Shown here: piece by piece, positions 8,840-53,193 of the stretch
Layout of the letters: each line of letters opens with the position of its first letter
Position numbering within the stretch: the stretch's first letter is position 1
Assembly: GCA_029262295.1 (NCBI GenBank)
Contig: JAJCZR010000068.1
Span: forward strand, 9,749-73,748
DNA length: 64,000 bases
Direction of reading: 5' to 3'
Source of the DNA: Deltaproteobacteria bacterium
GTDB taxonomy: Bacteria > Desulfobacterota_D > UBA1144 > Nemesobacterales > Nemesobacteraceae
Notes under the pieces: generated by a model
What the model was told of the DNA's origin: nothing
The model's input: the letters and a program-made list of their open reading frames with translations, nothing else
The model's database searches: none
Program-made: the position numbers and the translations under genes

Positions 8840-10060
8840 TTACCAAAGCGGATTAAAAACAAGTCCCGACATTATTTTTGGATAAAAATAAGTCGTTTTA
8901 TGAGGCATTTTTACCCCATCAAGAACAACTTCAAAAATATCATCAGCGCTGAGTTTTGGAAGTAAGAAGCCAATCTTAAAATCACCTTTTATAACATCAT
9001 TAAATACTTCTTCTGTGAATTTTGAAAACTTTACTCCAGCACTTTTTTCGTTAATGATTTTGCCGAATATCTCACTATGAAGAAGCATTACACCAAGGTT
9101 TTCATAATGCTTTTGTTTAGTTTCTTTGGGAGTTAATTTGTAGATTCCATCTTCATTATCTGTAACTATAGCAATCTGGTTAAATTCAAGGTCTGTCGCA
9201 TCTTCAAGATCAGACTTTTCAATTTTAAAAAACTTTCCAATTTCTTCCATAATTTTATAATCATTCAGTGCCCCAAGATTTTTTATAATCCTGTGTGTTG
9301 GATTAATTATTAATCCCTCTCCCTCACCCCTTGAAAGATACATCATCACATAATCGTAGGGCTTTGTGCCAGAATTTTCTCCGAATTTTTCTCTTTGTTG
9401 ATTTCTATAATTCATCGAGGTTTCATAACGATGATGTCCGTCGGCAATCAAAAGGCTTTTGCCTTTAAGATGATTTTGTATTTCAGAGATAATCCCTGGA
9501 TCAGAAATTTGCCAGAATGTATTTTTAATGCCGTCTTCAGCTTCAATATCAATTAATGGGTTTCCAAGATTGTCGTCTATAAGCTTTTCAACAGCACCTT
9601 CTTTATCTGAATAGACACTGAAAACCTGGCTCATATTTGCGTTACATGCGCTCGTTAGTTTTAGGCGATCTTCTTTATGTTCTTTAAAAGTTTGCTCGTG
9701 AGGTAGGACCGTTTTAGTCTCAAAATCTTCATTTTTCACAACGGCTATAAATCCCTTTCTTTTATAATGTTGACCTTCAAATTCAAATTCCTGATAGTAA
9801 GGATAAATTGAAGGTTCATCTTCCAGGGTTAGTGTATTATTTTCGAGCCATTCTTTGAAAGTAGCACTTGCATTTATATATTTTTCATCTCCCGCACCTT
9901 TGGAAAGGATTAGTCTGATTACATTTAATGGGTCTTTTTGGTAATAGCTTTCCTGTTGCTCACTGTTTATAACATCATAAGGAGGTGCCACCACTTTTGT
10001 GAAATCATTTATTTTGTCCTGATTATAACGAATTCCTTTAAAACCATTAATTTCAGCCAT
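8840..10060 (-). CDS. DUF1015 domain protein
   Basis: 406 aa with the conserved LLIADGHHRYETS motif typical of DUF1015/COG4198. Overlaps tsaC by 8 nt (operon). Confidence 0.55.
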   Translation of the reverse strand: MAEINGFKGIRYNQDKINDFTKVVAPPYDVINSEQQESYYQKDPLNVIRLILSKGAGDEKYINASATFKEWLENNTLTLEDEPSIYPYYQEFEFEGQHYKRKGFIAVVKNEDFETKTVLPHEQTFKEHKEDRLKLTSACNANMSQVFSVYSDKEGAVEKLIDDNLGNPLIDIEAEDGIKNTFWQISDPGIISEIQNHLKGKSLLIADGHHRYETSMNYRNQQREKFGENSGTKPYDYVMMYLSRGEGEGLIINPTHRIIKNLGALNDYKIMEEIGKFFKIEKSDLEDATDLEFNQIAIVTDNEDGIYKLTPKETKQKHYENLGVMLLHSEIFGKIINEKSAGVKFSKFTEEVFNDVIKGDFKIGFLLPKLSADDIFEVVLDGVKMPHKTTYFYPKIMSGLVFNPLW

Positions 10061-10670
10061 GAGTAAATTCCTTTAGTTCGTCTTTGGTTAAGTCCCCTTC
10101 TCTAAGCACTTTAGGAGGGGTTTGAGTAAGGTCGAGGATCGTCGATCCCAACGAAGGGGGAAGGCTACCCGAATCAACAATAAGATCAACTTTGTTAATT
10201 AAACCTTTATAAATATCCTTGAAATCGTTTGAATTTGATTTTCCGCTTATGTTTGCACTTGTTGAGGTAAGAGGCTCATCAATATAATTGAAGAGTTGTT
10301 TTACAAAAGGATTCTTTGAAATTCTCACTGCAATATTTTTATTTTCGCCCACTATAGCAGCTGGAAAATCAACCTTACTCTCAAGAATTAGTGTCAAAGG
10401 TTTTTTTGTATTGATATATTCTTTAAGATATTTTCCTCGTATTTTAAAATATTTTTCCAACATTTTTTTGTCCCTAACAAGCAAAATCATTCCCTTATTT
10501 TCAGGACGGTTTTTGATCTCGAGAATTCTCTTGCAGGATTCACTATTAAATGCAAGACATCCAATCCCATACAGAGTTTCAGTCGGATAAATTATCACAC
10601 CATTTTTGTTCAGACAGTCCGCTGCCTTATTGGGTGTTTCCTTGTTTTTTACTTTAAATATTTTAGTCAA
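10053..10670 (-). CDS. tsaC: L-threonylcarbamoyladenylate synthase, TsaC/YrdC type
   Basis: 205 aa. VIIYPTETLYGIGCLAFNSES...ILEIKNRPENKGMILLV matches the YrdC/Sua5 domain. Confidence 0.8.
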   Translation of the reverse strand: MTKIFKVKNKETPNKAADCLNKNGVIIYPTETLYGIGCLAFNSESCKRILEIKNRPENKGMILLVRDKKMLEKYFKIRGKYLKEYINTKKPLTLILESKVDFPAAIVGENKNIAVRISKNPFVKQLFNYIDEPLTSTSANISGKSNSNDFKDIYKGLINKVDLIVDSGSLPPSLGSTILDLTQTPPKVLREGDLTKDELKEFTHG

Positions 10671-10712: not shown

Positions 10713-12200
10713 ATGTCGAATCCAAATAAAAATAGAAACCATTTATGGAAATCTTCATTTGAGTCGAGGTTAGTCAAGATTCTTGGAAGAGAGCTTGTTA
10801 TTTCTCGTGAAGATGAACTTATTGCCTATGATTGTGATGGGCTCACAGGCTACAGGGTAAAACCCATATTTGTTGTACTTCCTGATACAACAGAGCAGGT
10901 GTCGAAAATTGTAAAACTCTGCCATGAAGAGAAAGTTCCGTTTGTCCCAAGGGGGGCAGGCACAGGGCTTTCCGGAGGAGCTTTGCCAACAGAGGAAGGA
11001 ATTGTTATTTCTCTTGCAAGAATGAATAAGATACTTGAGGTTGATATACCCAGCCGATGTGTTGTTGCTGAGCCTGGTGTTGTAAACGCATGGGTTACAA
11101 ATGAAGTAAGTTCTCGTGGATATTACTATGCTCCTGATCCTTCAAGCCAGGTTGTCTGCACTATCGGCGGGAATGTGGCTGAAAATTCAGGTGGTGTACA
11201 TTGCCTTAAATATGGAGTTACTGTAAATCACGTGCTCGGCGTTGAAATGATTTTGCCAGATGGTGAGATAGTGGAGCTAGGGGGTAAAACCCAGGAAAAT
11301 TTTGGATATGATCTTTTATCTTTAGTAGTGGGTTCAGAGGGGCTTTTGGGAATTGTTACAAAAGTTACTTTAAAAATTATTAAAAAACCTGGCGCAGTAA
11401 AAACACTTTTTGCATCTTTTGAAAAGATTGAAGATGCAGGGGAAGCCGTTTCGGGAATTATTTCAGGCGGAATTATTCCTGCCGGGATGGAGATAATGGA
11501 TAACGTGAGTATAAGGGCGGTCGAATCGACTGTAAACGCTGGTTATCCAGAAGATGCAGGAGCTATACTTTTAGTGGAGCTAGATGGTCCCCCCATAGAA
11601 GTGGAGCTTGAGCTTCCTCTTGTAGAGGATGTACTTAAAAAGAATAATGCTATTGAGATCAAAATTGCAAAAACCGAAACAGAAAGAGAGCTTTTTTGGA
11701 AAGGAAGGAAAAGCGCATTTGCTGCAATGGGGAGAATTAGTCCTGAATACTATGTGCAGGATGGAGTAATTCCAAGAAGTAAACTTGCCGAAGTGTTAGG
11801 AGAAATTGGTGAACTCAGCAAAAAATTTGATCTTATAGTTGCAAATGTTTTTCATGCAGGCGACGGTAATCTTCACCCACTAATACTTTATAACTCAAAA
11901 AATGAAGGTGAACTTGAACGGGCAGAAGTACTTGCAGGAGAGATATTGAATGTGTGTGTTGATGCCGGCGGAAGTATTACAGGTGAGCATGGAGTTGGTT
12001 TTGATAAGAAAAGGTTTATGTCAAAAATGTTTAGTGAACAGGATATAGATACAATGAACCTTGTACGTTGCACTTTTGATAGTGAAGGTCTTTGTAATCC
12101 GGGAAAGGTTTTTCCCACTCCAAGGACATGTGTTGAGCCAGGAATGAAAAAATTTGAAGTTCACCCAATTCAAAAAGAAGGCCGTGGAGAGATGTATTAA
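10713..12200 (+). CDS. glcD: Glycolate oxidase subunit GlcD / FAD-linked oxidase
   Basis: 495 aa. FAD-binding PCMH domain (PRGAGTGLSGGALP) and the C-terminal FAD-oxidase domain. Confidence 0.85.
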   Translation: MSNPNKNRNHLWKSSFESRLVKILGRELVISREDELIAYDCDGLTGYRVKPIFVVLPDTTEQVSKIVKLCHEEKVPFVPRGAGTGLSGGALPTEEGIVISLARMNKILEVDIPSRCVVAEPGVVNAWVTNEVSSRGYYYAPDPSSQVVCTIGGNVAENSGGVHCLKYGVTVNHVLGVEMILPDGEIVELGGKTQENFGYDLLSLVVGSEGLLGIVTKVTLKIIKKPGAVKTLFASFEKIEDAGEAVSGIISGGIIPAGMEIMDNVSIRAVESTVNAGYPEDAGAILLVELDGPPIEVELELPLVEDVLKKNNAIEIKIAKTETERELFWKGRKSAFAAMGRISPEYYVQDGVIPRSKLAEVLGEIGELSKKFDLIVANVFHAGDGNLHPLILYNSKNEGELERAEVLAGEILNVCVDAGGSITGEHGVGFDKKRFMSKMFSEQDIDTMNLVRCTFDSEGLCNPGKVFPTPRTCVEPGMKKFEVHPIQKEGRGEMY

Positions 12201-12208
12201 TTATTAAA

Positions 12209-13501
12209 ATGTCTGATCTCAAGCAACTTTCAAAAATAGTATCTGAATTTGAATTTCTTCAACCTGGAGATGAAAGATTTAATGATGCAGGATTTTCTCC
12301 AAAGCTTTTGCTCTTCCCTGCAAATGTTGAAGAGTTATCTGAGTCTATTAAATTTTGTAATAAATCGAAAATACCTCTTGTTCCAATTGGAAATGGCACT
12401 AAACTTTTTATTGGGAATCCGGTTTCAGATGTGAAAGTGGTTGTCTCGCTCAGGGTTATGAACAAGGTTCTTCAATATGAAACTGCTGATCTGGTCTCAA
12501 CAGTGCAGTGTGGAATACTATTTAAAAAGTTTCAACGTTCACTTAATAAGAAAGGGCAAATGTTACCAATCAATAGCCCCTTTGAAGATAACTCGACAAT
12601 GGGCGGGATTATATCCACAAACCTTTCGGGCCCACTTGCCACCAGATATGGAAGTTGCAGGGAGCTTCTTTTGGGAATCAAGGCTGTTAGGGCAGATGGC
12701 GAAATAATAAATTGTGGTGCAAAAGTTGTAAAAAATGTTGCTGGTTATGACATTCCAAAGCTCATGGTTGGAGCACTTGGCACTCTCATAGTTTTGGCTG
12801 AAGCCACATTCAGGCTCTATCCACGCCAGGAGTTTTCAAAAACAGCAATAATGGTTTTAAATGAAAATCAGGATATTAATGATCTTTTTAATAAAATCTG
12901 CGATATAGATGTTATCCCATCATCATTTGAGATACTTGATAAAAACCTTACGGCAAGATTTTTACCCAAAGTAAAAAATTCAATCTGTGTACTTTATAGA
13001 ATTGAAAGTCTCGAAGATGCTGTTGTAAAACAGATGAAAGATCTTCACAAAATAGTTGGTAAAAAGGTAAATGAATTTTTTGAAATTGATGAAAAATCTG
13101 AAAAAAACCTTTGGAAAAAGGTAAGCAGTTTTCCATTTAATACCAAAAGTAAACTAACTTGCAGGGTAAATTTACCGATTGCTAACTCTTTTAAACTTCT
13201 TGAAATACTTAAAGAGATCAATAAAAGCATGAAAGTGAAAATTGAGTTTCTCTTAAGGCCACAAAGAGGGACCACCTTATTTTCGATTGATGGAGAGCCT
13301 GGTGATATTGTTTATGGAGTCAACCTAATTAGAAGCCAGGTAAAAGCGCTTAAAGGCGCAGTTGCACTTACCTCAGTTGCAGATGAACTTAAAGGGCAGG
13401 TAGATGTATTTGGTGATTTTGGGAGTTCTAAGTTGATTATGAAAAATCTTAAAAATCATTTTGATCCGAACAATATACTTAGCCCGGGAAGGATTTTTTA
13501 G
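12209..13501 (+). CDS. glcE: Glycolate oxidase FAD-binding subunit GlcE-like
   Basis: 430 aa FAD-binding PCMH-type protein (PIGNGTKLFIGNP; ISTNLSGP...VVKNVAGYDIPKLMVGALGTL) immediately after glcD. Confidence 0.75.
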   Translation: MSDLKQLSKIVSEFEFLQPGDERFNDAGFSPKLLLFPANVEELSESIKFCNKSKIPLVPIGNGTKLFIGNPVSDVKVVVSLRVMNKVLQYETADLVSTVQCGILFKKFQRSLNKKGQMLPINSPFEDNSTMGGIISTNLSGPLATRYGSCRELLLGIKAVRADGEIINCGAKVVKNVAGYDIPKLMVGALGTLIVLAEATFRLYPRQEFSKTAIMVLNENQDINDLFNKICDIDVIPSSFEILDKNLTARFLPKVKNSICVLYRIESLEDAVVKQMKDLHKIVGKKVNEFFEIDEKSEKNLWKKVSSFPFNTKSKLTCRVNLPIANSFKLLEILKEINKSMKVKIEFLLRPQRGTTLFSIDGEPGDIVYGVNLIRSQVKALKGAVALTSVADELKGQVDVFGDFGSSKLIMKNLKNHFDPNNILSPGRIF

Positions 13502-13507
13502 TTAATT

Positions 13508-14293
13508 ATGATAAGAAGAGATATAGATGGGGGTTGGATACTTATTACCCAGGACGACCATGCAGTCCTTTCTTTTGATATTATGAAAAACTGGGGAAAT
13601 AGTAGGTTCGAGGAAATTATTCCAAATGAGCAGGTTTTAACTGCAATTAAAGAACATGATTGCGGTTGGAAAAAATGGGATAGCAGTTCCGTATTAAATA
13701 AGCAGAATAACTACCCTACCAATTTTATCGAGATGTACACTAACGATCAATATGTAATATGGAAAAACTCTTATGAAAGTCTGAGAGATGATTCAAGTTA
13801 CGCAGCATCACTTGTAGCTCTTCACTTCTCAAAGTTTAATAATAATACTCTTACTAAAAACCCTGATAATCGGACTGCAAAAATATTGAGGGATAAAATA
13901 AATAAATTTGTTCAAAGGAATCTTAAATTAAACTCAGATAATAAAGATAAAAATGGGTTTCTTCCAATTGATGTTAGGATAAATCTCAGGTTTTTGCAAA
14001 TAGGTGATATTGTTTCTCTTGCACTTTGCCATGGTTGGAGTTCAACTGAGATTGAAAATGTGCCGCTAAACTATCATGATGATAATGTGATTTTAAAACT
14101 GAGTTCGCAGGATGGTTTAAACTATGAAATAGACCCAAATCCTTTTCCTGAGAATAATCTAGAATTTAAAGTTAAAGGAAAAAAGCTTCTGAAAAAAGAG
14201 TTTAAGTCACAAGATGAGCTAGACATGGCTTTCAGTGATGCAACAGAACAAATTCTTTCGTTTTCAATTTGCAGCTGCCAGGAGGAAAGATAA
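13508..14293 (+). CDS. Hypothetical protein embedded in the glc operon (possibly DUF3891-like; assignment uncertain)
   Basis: 261 aa ORF tightly packed between glcE (7-nt gap) and glcF (0-nt gap). No recognisable catalytic motif. C-terminal CSC. Confidence 0.5.
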   Translation: MIRRDIDGGWILITQDDHAVLSFDIMKNWGNSRFEEIIPNEQVLTAIKEHDCGWKKWDSSSVLNKQNNYPTNFIEMYTNDQYVIWKNSYESLRDDSSYAASLVALHFSKFNNNTLTKNPDNRTAKILRDKINKFVQRNLKLNSDNKDKNGFLPIDVRINLRFLQIGDIVSLALCHGWSSTEIENVPLNYHDDNVILKLSSQDGLNYEIDPNPFPENNLEFKVKGKKLLKKEFKSQDELDMAFSDATEQILSFSICSCQEER

Positions 14294-15589
14294 ATACCTA
14301 CTTTTAAAGCTTTTGATGAAATAGATAAACCGGATAAAAAAATAATTGATGATTGCGTTCACTGCGGGTTTTGTCTGTCTGCATGTCCGACTTATCTTCA
14401 GACAGGAAATGAACTTGATTCCCCAAGGGGAAGAATTTATTTAATTAAGTCTGCAGCAGCCGGTGAAATAGATATGGACCTCTCACTTGTTAATCATCTT
14501 GATTTGTGCCTTGGTTGCCTTGCTTGTGAGACAGCATGTCCATCAGGGGTTAAATACGGAAGCCTTATTGAGACTGCAAGGGCACAGATAGAAAGAAGAT
14601 ATGAGAGGGGATGGTTCGATAAGGCTTTTAAATCTTTACTGTTTAGTTTGTTTCCTTACGCATCAAGACTAAAATTGATGCTACCCTTTTTCTACCTGTT
14701 AAATCTTTTGAAACTGAAAAGCGTAATAAAACCTGAGTTTTTATACAGAATAAATCCAAAGCTGGGAGCACTTTTTGATGTTCTTCCCGAAGTTAGCACC
14801 CCATTTGTAGAAAAACTTGGGGAATTAATTCCATCAAAGACAGAGAAAAAGTACAGGGTTGCAATGCTTACCGGATGTGTTCAAAGTGCGTTTTTTTCAA
14901 AAACTAACCAGGCGACTGTTAATGTATTAACAAGTAATGGGTGCGAAGTTGTAATCCCTAAAGGACAGGGTTGTTGTGGCGCACTTTCAATTCACTCAGG
15001 AAGGCTTAGTGAAGGTAAAGAGTTTGCAAGAAAGTTGATTGATACATTCACAAAACTTGATGTGGATGCAATTGTTGTTAACTCTGCAGGTTGCGGCTCA
15101 TCAATGAAAGAGTATGGATATATTTTTAAAAATGACCCAGCTTACAAAATAAAAGCAGAAAAGTTATCTCAAAAAACTAAAGATATAATGGAGTTTCTCT
15201 CAGAAATAGGGATTGAAAGTGAACTGCAACCTCTCGATTTAAAAATTACTTATCAGGATGCTTGTCATATTATTCATGGACAAAGAATAAAAAATGAGCC
15301 GCGTGAGATCCTCGAAAAAATTCCAGAACTTAAACTTATAGAAATGAAAAACTCTGATAGATGCTGCGGGAGCGCTGGAATTTATAATATTACCCAGCCG
15401 GATATGTCTCAAAAAATCCTGCATGAGAAAGTGGAAAATATAGAACAAACAGGTTCAGATTATCTTGTTGCCGGTAACCCGGGGTGTCTTTTGCAGATTA
15501 AAAAGGGTTTTACTAAAAACCAAAAAAGCATAAAAACTGCACATCCAGTTGAAATTCTCAACTGGTCAATCAAAGGCAAAATAAGCTAA
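14294..15589 (+). CDS. glcF: Glycolate oxidase iron-sulfur subunit GlcF; start codon non-canonical (AUA at 14294?) or the gene is disrupted
   Basis: The first 4Fe-4S motif CVHCGFCLSACPTY (14354-14395) and ELDSPRGRIYLIK lie upstream of the first ATG (14474). The second cluster CLGCLACETACPSG and the CCG domains follow. The frame is open back to the TAA of the upstream ORF. AGGAGG at 14280-14285 lies 8 nt before ATA at 14294. Confidence 0.75.
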   Translation: MPTFKAFDEIDKPDKKIIDDCVHCGFCLSACPTYLQTGNELDSPRGRIYLIKSAAAGEIDMDLSLVNHLDLCLGCLACETACPSGVKYGSLIETARAQIERRYERGWFDKAFKSLLFSLFPYASRLKLMLPFFYLLNLLKLKSVIKPEFLYRINPKLGALFDVLPEVSTPFVEKLGELIPSKTEKKYRVAMLTGCVQSAFFSKTNQATVNVLTSNGCEVVIPKGQGCCGALSIHSGRLSEGKEFARKLIDTFTKLDVDAIVVNSAGCGSSMKEYGYIFKNDPAYKIKAEKLSQKTKDIMEFLSEIGIESELQPLDLKITYQDACHIIHGQRIKNEPREILEKIPELKLIEMKNSDRCCGSAGIYNITQPDMSQKILHEKVENIEQTGSDYLVAGNPGCLLQIKKGFTKNQKSIKTAHPVEILNWSIKGKIS

Positions 15590-15593
15590 AGTT

Positions 15594-15620
15594 CCAACCC
15601 TAAATCTGACTTAGGGTTGG
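15594..15620. terminator. Perfect 10-bp inverted repeat (CCAACCCTAA-N7-TTAGGGTTGG) between convergent glcF and the HU gene; candidate bidirectional terminator hairpin
   Basis: Seen directly in the sequence between the glcF stop (15589) and the HU stop (15635). Confidence 0.45.
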
Positions 15621-15634
15621 AAAGTATTACAAAA

Positions 15635-15925
15635 TTAACCTAAAATTGCGTCTTTACAGGCTTTTGCTACTCTGAATTTCACGACTTTTTTAGCTGGAAT
15701 CTGAATTACTTCACCTGTGGCAGGGTTTCTTCCAGTTCTTGCTTTTCTGTCGCTTAAAACTAGTTTACCAATTCCAGGTAATGTGAATTGACCTTTTTTC
15801 TTTGCTTCACCACAAGCAATTTCTGCTATTTCATCGAGCAGATCATTTGCGGCTTTTTTTGTAAGACCTGTTCTTTCAGCAATTTCACCTGAAAGAGCTG
15901 ATTTAGTCATGGGTTTATTATCCAT
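15635..15925 (-). CDS. hup: HU/IHF family nucleoid-associated DNA-binding protein
   Basis: 96 aa. MTKSALSGEIAERTGLTKKAANDLLDEI...FTLPGIGKLVLSDRKARTGRNPATGEVIQIPAKKVVKFRVAKA matches the HU fold and arm. Confidence 0.85.
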   Translation of the reverse strand: MDNKPMTKSALSGEIAERTGLTKKAANDLLDEIAEIACGEAKKKGQFTLPGIGKLVLSDRKARTGRNPATGEVIQIPAKKVVKFRVAKACKDAILG

Positions 15926-30614: not shown

Positions 30615-31622
30615 TTGATGTCAATCAAAGTTGGAATAAATGGTTTTGGAAGAATCGGGAGACATATACTTAGAATAGCGCTTGATAGAAAAGATGTTGA
30701 GGTTGTCGGTGTTAATGATATTACTGATGCAGCCACTATGGCCCATCTTTTTAAATATGATTCAGTTTTTGGAAAATATAAAGAAGATGTTGTTTGTGAA
30801 GGTGAGAATATAGTAGTTGGTGAAAAAACAATAAAGGTATTCTCTGAAAGAGAGCCAAAAAATATTCCCTGGGATGATCTGGGTGCTGATATTGTAGCAG
30901 AATCCACAGGAGTATTCAGAACAAAAAAGACTGCCTCTGCACATCTTGGTGGAAGTGTAAAAAAAGTAATTATTACAGCTCCTTCAGGAGATATTGACTT
31001 AACAGTAGTTATGGGAATAAATGAGCAAGATTATGATCCTTCGAATCATCATATAATCTCAAATGCTTCATGTACAACCAACTGTTTTAGTATGCTTGTT
31101 AAAGTTCTTCACGATAATTTTGTTATAACCCGTGGGGATATGACTACTGTACATTCCTACACAAGCGATCAAAGATTACTTGATGCTCCACATAAGGATT
31201 TAAGAAGGGCCAGGTCAGCGGCATTATCAATTATTCCTACAAGCACCGGAGCTGCTGATGCAATAGTAAAAGTATTTCCCGAACTCAAAGGTAAACTTAC
31301 TGCAATTGCACTTCGCGTGCCAACGCCTAATGTTTCTCTTGTGGATTTTTCCTGCGAAGTTGAAAAAAATACAACTCCTGAAGAAATAAATTCCAAGTTT
31401 AAAGAAGCTTCGAAGGGTAACTTAAAAGGATTTCTGGGCTATCTTGAAGATGAAGTAGTATCCTCTGACCTTATTGGTGATTCAAATTCTGCTTCATTTG
31501 ATCCATTTTTAACATCGGTTGTTGAAGGCAATTTGGTTAAAGCAATTGCCTGGTATGACAATGAGTATGGCTACACTTCAAGAGTTGTTGATCTCATAGG
31601 ACATGTTGGGGGGAAGCTTTGA
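30615..31622 (+). CDS. gap: Glyceraldehyde-3-phosphate dehydrogenase
   Basis: 335 aa. INGFGRIGR; active-site ASCTTNC. Confidence 0.95.
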   Translation: MMSIKVGINGFGRIGRHILRIALDRKDVEVVGVNDITDAATMAHLFKYDSVFGKYKEDVVCEGENIVVGEKTIKVFSEREPKNIPWDDLGADIVAESTGVFRTKKTASAHLGGSVKKVIITAPSGDIDLTVVMGINEQDYDPSNHHIISNASCTTNCFSMLVKVLHDNFVITRGDMTTVHSYTSDQRLLDAPHKDLRRARSAALSIIPTSTGAADAIVKVFPELKGKLTAIALRVPTPNVSLVDFSCEVEKNTTPEEINSKFKEASKGNLKGFLGYLEDEVVSSDLIGDSNSASFDPFLTSVVEGNLVKAIAWYDNEYGYTSRVVDLIGHVGGKL

Positions 31623-32815
31623 GCACAAAGCTGTCAATAACTGATCTTCCTGATTCAGAATATAAAGGTAAAAGGGTTTTTGTAAGGGTTGATTTTAATG
31701 TTCCGATAAAAGATGGAAATATCAGCGAAGATTACAGAATTAGACAAGCCATTCCGACCATTGATTATCTTATAGAAAAAGGTGCAAAAGTGATTGTGGC
31801 ATCTCATCTTGGAAGGCCCAAAGGAAGGAATATTCCAGGGTTCTCTCTCAAACCTGTTGCTGAAAGGTTAAACGAAATATTAGATATAGAAGTGAATTTT
31901 CCTGGAGAAGTGTTTAGCGACAAAGTGAGAAATGCAGCAAATAACCTCAATGAAGGTGAGGTCATGCTGCTCGAAAACTTAAGATTTCACAAGGAAGAGA
32001 CAGATAATGATGAAGAGTTTGCAGAAAATTTGGCTTCATTAGCTGATATTTATGTTAATGATGCTTTTGGTACCTGCCACAGGGCACATGCCTCCACTTA
32101 TGGAATGGCAAAATATTTTGATAAAAGGCTAGCAGGTTTTGTTATTAGTAAAGAACTTGAATTTCTGGGAGCACTCCTTCAGAATCCAGATAGGCCGTAT
32201 CTTGTGATTGTGGGTGGGGCCAAGATAAAAGATAAGATTAATGCATTAAAAAATCTTTTAGAAACAGCAGATAAAGTTTTAATAGGCGGCTGTGTTGCCT
32301 ATACTTTTCTTGCAGCAAAAGGAGTAAAAGTGGGTAAGTCACTTGTTGAAAAAGAGATGATCCCCTGGGCAAAAGAGGCACTAAAAAATTATAGTGATAA
32401 AATTGAGTTACCCATAGACCATGTTGTTGCAGACAGCGTAGAAAATAGCAGGGTGATGATGGTAGTTGATAGAGAAATTCCGGAAGACCTGATGGGCTTT
32501 GATATTGGTCCTAAAACAGTTTCTAACTTTAATTCTCATATAAAGGGAAATGGCACAGTTTTTTGGAATGGACCAATGGGGCTTTTTGAAATGAACGATT
32601 TTTCAAATGGCACCTCGTCTATAGCAAGATCGGTTGCACTTGCCACTTGGAGAGGTGCCACAACAGTTGTTGGAGGAGGAGATAGTACTTCAGCGCTTAG
32701 AAGGGCAGAAGTGCTTATTTCCGAAATAAAACATGTTTCCACAGGTGGAGGGGCATCACTTGAGTTTCTAGGCGGGGATGAACTTCCGGGGATCTCTGTT
32801 TTAAGTGACAAATAA
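31619..32815 (+). CDS. pgk: Phosphoglycerate kinase
   Basis: 398 aa. RVDFNVP; ASHLGRPKG; GGGDS motifs. Overlaps gap by 4 nt. Confidence 0.95.
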   Translation: MSTKLSITDLPDSEYKGKRVFVRVDFNVPIKDGNISEDYRIRQAIPTIDYLIEKGAKVIVASHLGRPKGRNIPGFSLKPVAERLNEILDIEVNFPGEVFSDKVRNAANNLNEGEVMLLENLRFHKEETDNDEEFAENLASLADIYVNDAFGTCHRAHASTYGMAKYFDKRLAGFVISKELEFLGALLQNPDRPYLVIVGGAKIKDKINALKNLLETADKVLIGGCVAYTFLAAKGVKVGKSLVEKEMIPWAKEALKNYSDKIELPIDHVVADSVENSRVMMVVDREIPEDLMGFDIGPKTVSNFNSHIKGNGTVFWNGPMGLFEMNDFSNGTSSIARSVALATWRGATTVVGGGDSTSALRRAEVLISEIKHVSTGGGASLEFLGGDELPGISVLSDK

Positions 32816-33908: not shown

Positions 33909-34922
33909 TTATTCATTAACAAAATTTAAAACCCTGTTTACCATATTGTATGAGCCAATATAGATAGAGACTCTTTGATGAATATCCTTTGGTTCAATGT
34001 CCAGAATTCTTTTCGTTCCACTGGATGCTACTCCTCCTGCTTGTTCAACAATATAGGCAAGAGGGTTACATTCATAAAGTAATCTCAGCTTTCCTTCAGG
34101 AGCGTCATCTGTTGGTGGGTACATGAATATCCCCCCTTTTAGAATACTTCTATGAATATCGGCTACCATTGAACCCACATACCTCATTGAATAAGGCCTT
34201 CCTGTTTCGGGATCAACTTCATTACAGTAATCCAGATATTTTTTTACTCCTGGTGACAGAAATCTTGCGTAATTACCAAAATTTATTGAATAGGTATTTC
34301 CCTGTTGAGGCATCTGGATATTTTCGTGTGAAAGGCAAAACTCACCGATTGAAGGGTCAAGGGTAAATCCATTTACACCTCTTCCAGTAGTATAAACAAG
34401 CATCGTAGATGAGCCGTAAATCACGTAACCGGCAGCTGCCTGATTTATACCACTTTGAAGAAAATCTTCCATAGTGCACTTTGAGTTTGGATCAGATTTT
34501 CTTCTATATATGGAAAAAATTGTGCCTACCGAAACATTCACATCAATATTGGATGATCCATCGAGAGGATCCATGGCAATTATATACTTTGAGCTTATTG
34601 AGTTTTTATGATCAAAGATTATAGGTTCTTCATTTTCTTCTGAGACAACACCTGCACATTCTCCATCAAGCTCAAGGGCATTTAAAAATTTTTCGTTAGC
34701 ATAGCTATCAAGTTTTTGAACTTCCTCACCCTGCACATTAGTATTTCCCGTTTTTCCAAGGATATTCCTTATGAGTCCAGCCTTGTTTACTTCCCTATGG
34801 ACAATTTTTGCAGCAAAGCCAATATCTCTAAGAAGCCTCGACAATTCTCCTGTGGAATAAGGAAAATCAGCCTGTTTTTTGATTATAAATTCATCAAGAG
34901 TTGTAATTCCAGATACATTCAC
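33909..34922 (-). CDS. fbp: Fructose-1,6-bisphosphatase class 1
   Basis: 337 aa. [15 protein letters not shown]; [15 protein letters not shown]; metal-binding DPLDGSSN. Confidence 0.9.
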
Positions 34923-34963
34923 AGATATATAATTTAACCGAATTTAGTTATTTGATAAAAAGT

Positions 34964-47622: not shown

Positions 47623-49086
47623 GTGGATAATGAAGTTTTGTCAGAAGAACTAAAAAAGTATGTATCAAATATTGATAAAGATATTTACACTGTAAGTAAT
47701 ATCCCCGAAGAAGTAATTGCCGTAATATTTGCTTATGTGAGCAGGAGTTCCAAAGGGTTTAGAGAAAATATTGATGTAGTAATAAAAGAGGAGCAACACG
47801 GTAGGGAAAGGGCAGCGAAGTTTCATGAAAAATGGGTTCTAAATTATGGCCACGCATCTGTGGCTGAACATGCCGCTGTACACATGGGTGTTGAAAAAGT
47901 ATCAAGGCTTTTTTCTTCCATATTTGAACTTAGTAATGAATTTCTGTCTTTTACTGAATATTCTCAAAGATACCAAAGACCAAAAAAAGGCGATTTTTAT
48001 GTACCTGATGAACTTTCATCAAATCAAACTCTAAAAACAGAATTTACTCAGCTTTGTGACTATCAGTATGACATTTATGCAAGACTTAACTCAAAGCTTT
48101 TAGAATATCTCAAAGATAAAAATCCAGTACCTTCTGATCAAGACGAGAAAAGACACATCTCAGCACTTGAAAAAATTGCTTTTGAAGATGCAAGGTATGC
48201 ACTCAACCTTGCTACTCTTACCAATCTTGGGATGACAGCCAATGCAAGGGCAATTGAAGACTGTATCTCCAGCCTTCTTTCATCAAAGTATCCAGAAGTA
48301 AGGAAAAGAGCTCGGGAAATGAAAGATGAAGTTAAGTTTTCCGTGCCCACACTCGTAAAGTATGCAAATGAAAATGAATATATAGTTAATACAAGAAAGG
48401 AGTTTTCCCATTTTGATTTAAAAGTTTCTGAATCTGCCCTGAATGGCCCTACTGCAAATCTTTTAGACTTTACGGGAAGGGAAAATGCTAAGCCTGAGAA
48501 TGAGGCTATTAGAAAAGTTTTGCAGGCACTTTTTTATAAATATTCAGAGGCTGATCTTGAGAGTATCAATAGTGAAACTTCCGTTGAACCAGTTGAACTT
48601 GTAGGGCTTTTTGAAAAAGCAGTGAATAGCCTTAGTAAACATGATAATCCAACGAATATATTTAAACTCATAAAGTATGAAGCTGAATTTATACTGAGTG
48701 AAGCCAACTGGCATCAACTTCTTCGCCATAGAAAAGTAAACTGGATTGTAAAAGATCCGTCTGTGAAGAATGGTATAACCGTTCCCCCCAATATCACTGA
48801 GTCAGGCAACACTGATCTTTTAATGAAGGCAGTGGAAATGAGCGAAAGGCTGTATAATAAATTAGTTGAGAGCGGTTTTGAAACTACTGCCCATTATGTT
48901 GTTACAAATGCCCATAATAGAAGAGTAATTGGGGATTTTGATCTTTGGGAACTTTATCATCTTATAAATCTCAGAATGTCTGAGGGTGCGCAGTGGGACA
49001 TTAAAAAGCTTATAGCTGATCTTGCGGAAAAGATTGCTAAATATCACCCTAATCTTGTAAAACCAGCTTTATTGAGGGTTCATTAG
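47623..49086 (+). CDS. ThyX-like (flavin-dependent thymidylate synthase) long-form protein
   Basis: 487 aa. The first half has ThyX-like NYGHASVAEH and YSQRY but no RHR. The second half has LLRHRKVNWIVKDPS (RHRx7-9S-like) and a WDIKKLIADLAEKIAKYHP C-terminal segment. Confidence 0.5.
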   Translation: MDNEVLSEELKKYVSNIDKDIYTVSNIPEEVIAVIFAYVSRSSKGFRENIDVVIKEEQHGRERAAKFHEKWVLNYGHASVAEHAAVHMGVEKVSRLFSSIFELSNEFLSFTEYSQRYQRPKKGDFYVPDELSSNQTLKTEFTQLCDYQYDIYARLNSKLLEYLKDKNPVPSDQDEKRHISALEKIAFEDARYALNLATLTNLGMTANARAIEDCISSLLSSKYPEVRKRAREMKDEVKFSVPTLVKYANENEYIVNTRKEFSHFDLKVSESALNGPTANLLDFTGRENAKPENEAIRKVLQALFYKYSEADLESINSETSVEPVELVGLFEKAVNSLSKHDNPTNIFKLIKYEAEFILSEANWHQLLRHRKVNWIVKDPSVKNGITVPPNITESGNTDLLMKAVEMSERLYNKLVESGFETTAHYVVTNAHNRRVIGDFDLWELYHLINLRMSEGAQWDIKKLIADLAEKIAKYHPNLVKPALLRVH

Positions 49087-52078: not shown

Positions 52079-52242
52079 GTGGTGTAAAGTGTCAGTCTGG
52101 GGCCCATTGTTCACTAATGTTTGGTGGATCAAAGAAAAGATTAATTCTATAAAAATTTATTTGAAAATTGTGTAAAATGTATTGTTGTTTTAATGTGAAT
52201 AATTGTAAAAGTGCTTATTAAGTCTAAGACGGAGAATTTTTT

Positions 52243-53193
52243 GTGATTATTTGTGATAAATGTCAGGCTAATATAACACCAGATTCAAAGTATTGTCCGC
52301 AATGTGGTGATCCTGTTACAGAAGCTGATATATCTAATAAACCAATTGTTGAAGGAAAAATCCCAAGAGCAATAATAGAATTTGGCTATAGTTCGTCTCC
52401 ATCCTATGATAAAGCTGTAAACATAGTTAGTAATATTGACACTTATTCAAGTAGTGGTAATGAAAAGGAAATTAAACATAGAATAGATCTTCCTGTTACT
52501 GAAGTTGAACTTCTAATAACTATTTATGATTTAGTAGGAGGTTGGAAATCTTCATCTATGCTTATTGATGGAAAAAGAGCAACTAAAAGGAATCTAACTT
52601 ATTATGGACTAGGATGTTATAGAAAGAGACAGGAATCGGTTAACCCTAAGCAATATTGCTATGGAGAAGAACAATGGTCTGCAAATATATGGGGATGTTC
52701 CAAACTTAATATGCCTGTTATTACGTGGGGTGGATGGTTAGATTATGGTAGGTTTGATGATGAAGGTATTTGGCACTTTGACAAAGATAAAATTAAAGAA
52801 GAACTGCTTAAAGGGATTAATGAAAATGAATTATGTCCAGTGTTAAATCCCACAAAAATATTTGAGACTCTTGATAAGCTTCCTAATACAATAAATCCAA
52901 AAACTGATAAAAATTGGGAATATAAGGAAACTTACGAAGAGATAGATGGCGAATATAAGAAAGTAGCCAAAGGTATAACACCTATAATAAATAAGATTGA
53001 TACTTTCATACTAGATGATTTTAAGCCACAATGGAAAATTGAATTAGAAAATGATAGAGAAGAACAGAAAATTAGTACTATGGAACTTTCTATTGACCTT
53101 ACAGATCTTCCTAAAAAGAAAAAAACTGGAACTGGATGTCTTGTAAATATTCTTATCTTAATTTCATTGATTAGTGCATGGATCTTTATATAG
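52243..53193 (+). CDS. Hypothetical protein with N-terminal double zinc ribbon and C-terminal TM anchor
   Basis: 316 aa. CDKCQANITPDSKYCPQCGDP at the N-terminus. GCLVNILILISLISAWIFI at the C-terminus. Unknown central domain. Confidence 0.5.
   Translation: MIICDKCQANITPDSKYCPQCGDPVTEADISNKPIVEGKIPRAIIEFGYSSSPSYDKAVNIVSNIDTYSSSGNEKEIKHRIDLPVTEVELLITIYDLVGGWKSSSMLIDGKRATKRNLTYYGLGCYRKRQESVNPKQYCYGEEQWSANIWGCSKLNMPVITWGGWLDYGRFDDEGIWHFDKDKIKEELLKGINENELCPVLNPTKIFETLDKLPNTINPKTDKNWEYKETYEEIDGEYKKVAKGITPIINKIDTFILDDFKPQWKIELENDREEQKISTMELSIDLTDLPKKKKTGTGCLVNILILISLISAWIFI

Follow-up and report, generated by a model that had tools for sequence, protein, structure and literature searches.

A near-cognate codon as the probable translation start of glcF in a Dadabacteria-type clade

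A glcF-like frame without a canonical start codon

The stretch of DNA analysed here, called the window below, comprises 64,000 nucleotides (nt) of contig JAJCZR010000068.1 from the Deltaproteobacteria bacterium assembly GCA_029262295.1, and carries on its forward strand four consecutive genes that form a single operon ending in glcF, the gene whose start codon is in question. The operon begins with a glcD-like gene (10713-12200) encoding a 495-residue oxidase subunit linked to flavin adenine dinucleotide (FAD), in which the Pfam domains FAD_binding_4 and FAD-oxidase_C are recognized; its score against the NCBIfam GlcD model TIGR00387 (558 bits) is slightly below the cut-off of 567.9. After a spacer of 8 nt comes a glcE-like gene (12209-13501) for a 430-residue FAD-binding subunit with a FAD_binding_4 domain, which scores 156 bits against the NCBIfam GlcE model (cut-off 284). 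It is followed, 6 nt further on, by an open reading frame (ORF X, 13508-14293, 261 residues) of the DUF3891 family (Pfam PF13030), whose TAA stop (14291-14293) directly abuts the glcF start with a 0-nt spacer.

The open frame of glcF extends over 431 codons, from 14294 to 15589, and is in phase with ORF X within the window. From 14294 to 14474 there is no in-frame GTG or TTG, the start-like codons being limited to ATA and ATT with one CTG at codon 28, and the first in-frame ATG (14474-14476) corresponds to codon 61 (Met61), where the 371-residue database call P0001 begins. The putative initiation codon is the ATA at 14294-14296, the very first codon of the open frame, which aligns with the initial Met of orthologues. 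A Shine-Dalgarno (SD) sequence, AGGAGG (14280-14285), is located inside the last codons of the DUF3891 gene, with an 8-nt spacer to this ATA. When the sequence was re-read, the positions that an earlier sequence-only reading had given to the frame, the TAA, the AGGAGG, the ATA and the ATG at 14474 all proved correct.

Among the stop-to-stop frames of 120 codons or more in the 64-kb window, 72 in all, only three have a run of at least 60 codons before their first canonical start. The other two, with runs of 72 and 61 codons, are short frames lying antisense within longer ORFs, so that glcF is the only long, gene-like ORF with a startless run of this length. The run exceeds chance: it is the sole gene-like case, and it holds invariant residues of the family.

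Architecture of the full-length protein

Read from 14294 to 15589, the gene encodes a 431-residue GlcF-like iron-sulphur (Fe-S) subunit with an N-terminal 2x[4Fe-4S] ferredoxin-type domain and two CCG domains. The Pfam 4Fe-4S dicluster models Fer4_8 and Fer4_7 cover residues 18-86 of this extended GlcF, and two CCG stretches are matched as well. The first cluster motif, CxxCxxCxxxCP (C21-P32, CVHCGFCLSACP), is encoded at 14354-14389, with C21, C24, C27, C31 and P32 invariant, and the second motif of the same pattern (C72-P83) at 14507-14542. The alignment to the NCBIfam GlcF model (NF008434) begins at residue 14 of the 431-residue protein and scores 316 bits, short of the equivalog cut-off of 333; the architecture is nonetheless that of GlcF, both CxxCxxCxxxCP motifs and both CCG domains being present and homologues of glcD and glcE lying next to the gene. 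The window protein is best described as GlcF-like, with a substrate that the sub-cut-off scores of the GlcD, GlcE and GlcF homologues do not fix.

The ligands of each cluster in a two-cluster ferredoxin fold come from both Cys motifs. A start at Met61 removes C21, C24, C27 and C31, and both clusters would therefore be lost.

The homologous codon in seven lineages

Relatives were gathered through a protein search with the 431-residue translation, through relatives of the DUF3891 protein, and through two GlcF matches. They define, together with the window, a clade of seven Dadabacteria-type lineages whose GlcF proteins share 64-79% identity over the full length in six lineages, the seventh being a partial sequence. 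The source names of the relatives are 'Candidatus Dadabacteria' and 'Thermodesulfobacteriota', Dadabacteria being a class of that phylum in the NCBI taxonomy; the window probably belongs to the same lineage. In the protein search, the window's own call, P0001, appears as a 371-residue protein with CCG domains only, and two more shortened calls, P0003 and P0084 (78% and 69% identity), stand amid hundreds of full-length homologues of 431-435 residues. The contigs of P0003 and P0084 are syntenic with the window, in the order DUF1015 (minus strand), Sua5 (minus strand), glcD, glcE, DUF3891, glcF, HU (minus strand) and RND pump, and as in the window a gap of ~180 nt separates the DUF3891 stop from the called ATG.

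The codon homologous to 14294 is ATH (ATA, ATT or ATC) in all seven lineages. Four carry ATA: the window (AGGAGG 8 nt upstream, 0 nt between DUF3891 stop and start), L002 (AGGAGG at 8 nt; 12 nt from the stop), L012 (AGGAGG at 9 nt; 13 nt) and L094 (a weak GGGG-type SD; 13 nt). Two carry ATT, namely L004 (AAGGAG at 8 nt; 2 nt from the stop) and L098 (AAGGAGG at 7 nt; 13 nt), and one, L099, carries ATC (AAGGAGG(G) at 6-7 nt; 2 nt). The DUF3891 stop of L098 was placed at the TGA at 33-35 by C-terminal homology (...FSISSD*) to the other lineages. The phase of glcF relative to DUF3891 is 0 in the window and L002, +1 in L012, L094 and L098, and +2 in L004 and L099.

The start codon state recurs in independent data. 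Eight ERR3484xxx samples contain the ATT lineage, four NCBI assemblies represent the L094 lineage and two samples hold the L002 lineage, and a Logan assembly of SRR15505519 agrees with the window letter for letter. When the sequence was read on its own, it had been considered that an ATG had recently become ATA or that the ATA was a sequencing error; both are refuted by the non-ATG codon in seven diverged lineages, reproduced within four of them. In L012, the NCBI annotation begins the 431-residue protein P0002 (MSIYKAFD...) at the ATA itself. For the L002 and L004 lineages the only records are shortened proteins of 371-378 residues, and the locus of the L094 lineage has the same kind of 371-residue call. 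The ATA is the first codon of the open frame in the window and the second in L012, which leaves no room for an upstream start in these two lineages.

In the L098 scaffold (ENA scaffold DONG22-1...47588, positions 28-51), the gene caller placed the glcF start at a GTG inside the 3' end of DUF3891, 7 codons before the ATT. Two assemblies of the L094 lineage have a gene split in two ORFs, namely glcE in L093 (2743-3985, GCA_012974745.1) and glcF in L095 (4866-6096, GCA_011772825.1), the latter with an ambiguous base adjacent; in the sister assembly L094 both glcE and glcF are intact. The splits are probably assembly errors rather than biology. A scan of JGI metagenomes with the DUF3891 alignment found no relatives, and among the matches listed in a scan of genome collections there were only distant relatives of at most 65% identity, which served as outgroups and added no clade members.

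Selection on the leader

The Met of ATG-starting 431-residue orthologues (MSLETAFDDTDRPS.KIIQDC; MSLETAFD..) aligns exactly with the Ile-coded position of the window (IPTFKAFDEIDKPDKKIIDDC; IPTFKAFD..), so that the ATG of the orthologues falls on the codon at 14294. The same alignment shows A6, F7, D8, D11 and P13, together with the first Cys motif, to be invariant throughout the family. Between lineages, codons 2-60 show a proportion of synonymous differences (pS) of 0.59-0.96, which is saturated, against a proportion of nonsynonymous differences (pN) of 0.06-0.18, and the rest of the gene behaves alike; purifying selection extends to codons 2-17. Because pN is far below pS in codons 2-60, a pseudogene and a product starting at Met61 are both excluded. 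The 431-codon frame is intact in the six lineages with full-length sequence, which lack the marks of a pseudogene, and is disrupted in one assembly only (L095), beside the ambiguous base. On this comparative evidence, we judge the database start at ATG 14474 to be a mis-call.

The ribosome-binding region and the gene junction

The predicted duplex between the window SD and the anti-SD sequence has an energy of -10.3 kcal/mol, compared with a median of -4.0 kcal/mol for the genes of the window, only 11% of which are at or below -9 kcal/mol. In six of the seven clade lineages the energies range from -8 to -12.4 kcal/mol, and the SD follows the ATH codon from lineage to lineage. The spacers of 7-9 nt between SD and ATH lie within the functional range of about 5-10 nt.

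The spacers between the DUF3891 stop and the glcF start are 0-2 nt in three lineages and 12-13 nt in four, all within the distance of less than ~20 nt at which coupling between neighboring genes is considered. Across six lineages, no RNA structure is predicted or conserved at the DUF3891-glcF junction, and the idea of an SD-sequestering hairpin opened by upstream translation is therefore without support.

Outgroups and origin of the ATH codon

Beyond the clade, DUF3891 lies directly before glcF in eight of nine other Dadabacteria-type loci (L013-L018, L020 and L097; not L019), and none of the GlcF loci retrieved from Actinomycetota, Chloroflexota and other phyla contains it. In these Dadabacteria-type outgroups, DUF3891 and glcF are separate genes and glcF has an ATG at or near the same position, which in 7 of 8 outgroup loci overlaps the DUF3891 stop or lies at most 10 nt past it. 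The tight linkage of stop and start is probably ancestral, as the outgroup loci share it. In L014 and L015 (2986-2996), the glcF ATG is situated 8 nt before the DUF3891 TGA, giving an 11-nt gene overlap (ATGTCGCTTGA), a geometry unlike that of the ATH clade.

In a neighbor-joining tree of GlcF, the six full-length ATH lineages form one clade, sister to a group of 431-residue proteins with ATG. The simplest reading of these relationships is that ATG changed to ATH once, in the ancestor of this Dadabacteria-type subclade, and that the codon would then have drifted among AUA, AUU and AUC, with at least three changes among ATA, ATT and ATC and zero sampled reversion to ATG.

The DUF3891 gene

ORF X matches PF13030 with an E-value of 1.6e-40 and 139.7 bits (cut-off 24), over positions 1-217 of the 219 in the profile. 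The sequence-only reading had regarded it as an unknown ORF inserted between glcE and glcF. It does lie between the two genes, as it does in all seven clade lineages; it is however a member of a Pfam family, and its position is the usual one in Dadabacteria-type loci rather than a local insertion.

An alignment of 28 DUF3891 orthologues reveals invariant H18, E49-H50-D51, H106, D167 and C174, a pattern of His and Asp residues that resembles HD-type metal sites. The AlphaFold2 model is confident, with a predicted local distance difference test (pLDDT) value of 91.8, and has no significant fold match in the PDB. When the DUF3891 alignment was used for a profile search, every one of the top matches listed fell into the same Dadabacteria-type subfamily. 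Its conserved position and tight linkage to glcF suggest DUF3891 as a candidate accessory subunit or maturation factor.

Surroundings of the operon

A perfect hairpin of 14 bp (15592-15622), detected by pattern scan only, lies between the convergent glcF and an HU-like gene on the minus strand (15635-15925), and is likely to be a terminator of the operon, or a bidirectional one. On the other side, divergent from the glc operon, genes of the DUF1015 and Sua5/YciO/YrdC families (8840-10670, minus strand) overlap by 8 nt, an arrangement kept in every contig of the ATH clade long enough to show it. The glcE-like protein (430 residues) exceeds the 358-position NCBIfam GlcE model, its match being confined to residues 40-303; a short stretch at the very C-terminal end of the protein also matches FAD-oxidase_C.

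The GC content is ~36%, i.e., AT-rich. A promoter scan gave matches no more frequent than expected from shuffled sequence. Rfam and tRNA scans of the window gave nothing, which leaves it without a riboswitch, a leader RNA or a tRNA that could bear on decoding.

A genome-wide change of initiation rules was considered and rejected for the window, where all other long ORFs have a canonical start.

The long ORFs at 31592-32815, 33909-34943 (minus strand), 47623-49086 and 52228-53193 have their first ATG 87-124 codons in and a GTG or TTG within codons 0-9; these four are probably translated from the GTG or TTG.

Interpretation and alternative explanations

We consider it very probable that glcF is a complete, functional gene of 431 codons starting at the near-cognate AUA 14294. 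Initiation at this AUA, one of several possibilities raised by the sequence-only reading, is strongly supported by the comparison of the seven lineages. In the proposed mechanism, the initiator tRNA would read AUA 14294 and begin the protein with formylmethionine (fMet), giving a predicted N-terminus of (f)M/I-PTFKAFDEIDKPDK. The ribosome would be positioned by the near-perfect AGGAGG with its 8-nt spacer, within the end of the DUF3891 gene, and ribosomes ending at the abutting UAA may assist through translational coupling or re-initiation. The weak codon may also set or regulate the output of GlcF relative to the other subunits.

Several points weigh against this interpretation or limit parts of it. 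The organisms are uncultured and represented by metagenome-assembled genomes, and the N-terminus of GlcF is placed by comparison. The SD of L094 is weak (-5.5 kcal/mol), and the ATG-using sister group has the same strong SD as the clade (-10.0 kcal/mol in L014 and L015); the strong SD is better called permissive than demonstrably compensatory, as Belinky et al. (PMC5622118) use the latter term. Translational coupling needs overlaps or very short spacers (PMC10666635), and the 12-13-nt spacers of four lineages are near the range where it declines, so that coupling is not the general or sole mechanism. L098 is the only member of the clade with a possible canonical alternative start, the in-frame GTG 7 codons upstream that the caller chose; this GTG has no SD, and AAGGAGG lies 7 nt before the ATT. 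The neighbor-joining tree carries no support values. Finally, with only ~3 inferred changes, the lack of G at the third position in seven lineages is not statistically significant, and because the changes are so few, selection for a weak start is not demonstrable.

A start further downstream, either at ATG 14474, which would give a GlcF without its first cluster motif, or at the near-cognate codons ATA 14321, ATA 14342 or ATT 14345, appears highly improbable. ATG 14474 has in its favour that it is the sole canonical codon and that the clade conserves Met61, but a start there drops four Cys ligands, and codons 2-60 are under purifying selection; no downstream candidate has an SD, which tracks the first ATH in all lineages. 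The AUU at 14345, proposed earlier as an alternative to AUA, has in addition the invariant A6, F7, D8, D11 and P13 upstream of it, likewise under purifying selection. We give still less credence to a DUF3891-GlcF fusion, made by read-through of the in-frame UAA or surviving as the remnant of a fusion that was split by a nonsense mutation, as the sequence-only reading had also envisaged. The two ORFs do share a frame, with one stop between them, in the window and L002, but all three phases occur among the lineages, the outgroups have separate genes with an ATG of their own for glcF, and no protein of ~690 residues is found among the best 120 GlcF or DUF3891 matches. UAA is moreover the most efficient terminator, which counts against read-through. 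It is scarcely credible that the ATA reflects an error of sequencing or assembly or a mutation of very recent date, or that the gene is a pseudogene in decay: public calls of the window gene give only the 371-residue product, but the state is common to seven diverged lineages, with up to 8 independent samples per lineage and an identical Logan assembly, the frame is intact, and pN/pS in the leader is ~0.1-0.2.

A further alternative accepts the mechanism of initiation at AUA and offers only a different reason for the persistence of the state. The ATH start would be a near-neutral relic, an ATG-to-ATA change having been tolerated in an AT-rich genome given the strong SD and the adjacent stop, and followed by drift. 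We regard this as quite possible, if somewhat short of an even chance. The strong SD and the tight stop-start spacing were already present in the ATG-using sister group, the third position is free among A, T and C with a lack of G that is not significant, and in vitro an AUA mRNA whose initiation region was optimised does as well as one with AUG (PMC5499595). On the other hand, purifying selection generally maintains AUG (PMC5622118), a return from ATA to ATG takes a single transition and yet zero reversion was sampled despite saturated synonymous sites, and the ATH state is specific to one gene within the window. By analogy with infC, the AUH start could instead be an adaptive control point fixed in the clade, with GlcF made chiefly by ribosomes fresh from translating DUF3891, so that its output is locked to that of DUF3891, or gated by initiation factor 3 (IF3), guanosine tetraphosphate (ppGpp) or nutrient state; we think this unlikely.

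Comparison with known systems

Bacteria are known to start translation at AUA, AUU and AUC, though very rarely; IF3 discriminates against these codons, and their use is sensitive to ppGpp and nutrient state (PMC5499595). Rare initiators of the ATA, ATT, ATC and CTG type account for ~0.004-0.024% of annotated starts, and in E. coli such codons give in vivo about 1-2% of the initiation from AUG (PMC5499595; Hecht et al.). The best-known case is infC, which uses AUU or AUC for the autoregulation of IF3 (PMC5499595). The likeness of glcF to infC with its AUU or AUC, and to E. coli pcnB with its AUU, lies in a gene-specific, conserved AUH in place of AUG, a third position other than G and the need for a good initiation region (PMC5499595). 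However, the AUH of infC is near-universal in bacteria and a proven target of IF3, whereas that of glcF belongs to one Dadabacteria-type subclade, in a metabolic Fe-S subunit gene with AUA predominant; with infC-type regulation, glcF shares only the codon type. NCBI translation table 11 lists ATA, ATT, ATC and CTG as rare initiators, which the NCBI pipeline annotates now and then, and P0002 of L012 is annotated with exactly such an ATA.

The junction resembles systems of termination-reinitiation coupling in having a stop 0-13 nt from the start, an SD embedded upstream and genes that are plausibly of one complex (PMC10666635). Classical coupling, in contrast, involves overlapping ATGA or TGATG sequences with canonical starts, whereas the glcF locus has an AUH restart and 12-13-nt spacers in four lineages. 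As for the complex itself, the locus shares with E. coli GlcDEF the gene order D-E-(X)-F, the 2x[4Fe-4S] domain with two CCG domains, and ~20 residues before the first Cys. Unlike E. coli GlcDEF, it has an extra DUF3891 gene between E and F, a non-canonical glcF start and scores below the NCBIfam equivalog cut-offs.

A literature search found no published description of the AUH glcF start of this clade. Taken together, the comparisons point to a real, gene-specific and clade-conserved near-cognate start, which would be a new instance in a metabolic gene of a mechanism that is already known.

Significance

The glcF start offers a natural AUH example outside infC that has been kept past synonymous saturation, and could help to decide whether such codons are under selection or just tolerated. 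For annotation, callers limited to ATG, GTG and TTG cut 54-60 residues, including a whole Fe-S cluster motif, in most public calls of the clade. The shortened GlcF then appears in databases as a CCG-only protein, which would mislead the metabolic reconstruction of Dadabacteria. The conserved and closely linked position of DUF3891 beside a GlcDEF-like complex provides a testable context for an uncharacterised family. Should the start prove to be a control point of GlcF output, DUF3891 would be a fourth subunit or maturation factor of a Dadabacteria-specific 2-hydroxyacid dehydrogenase of the GlcDEF type.

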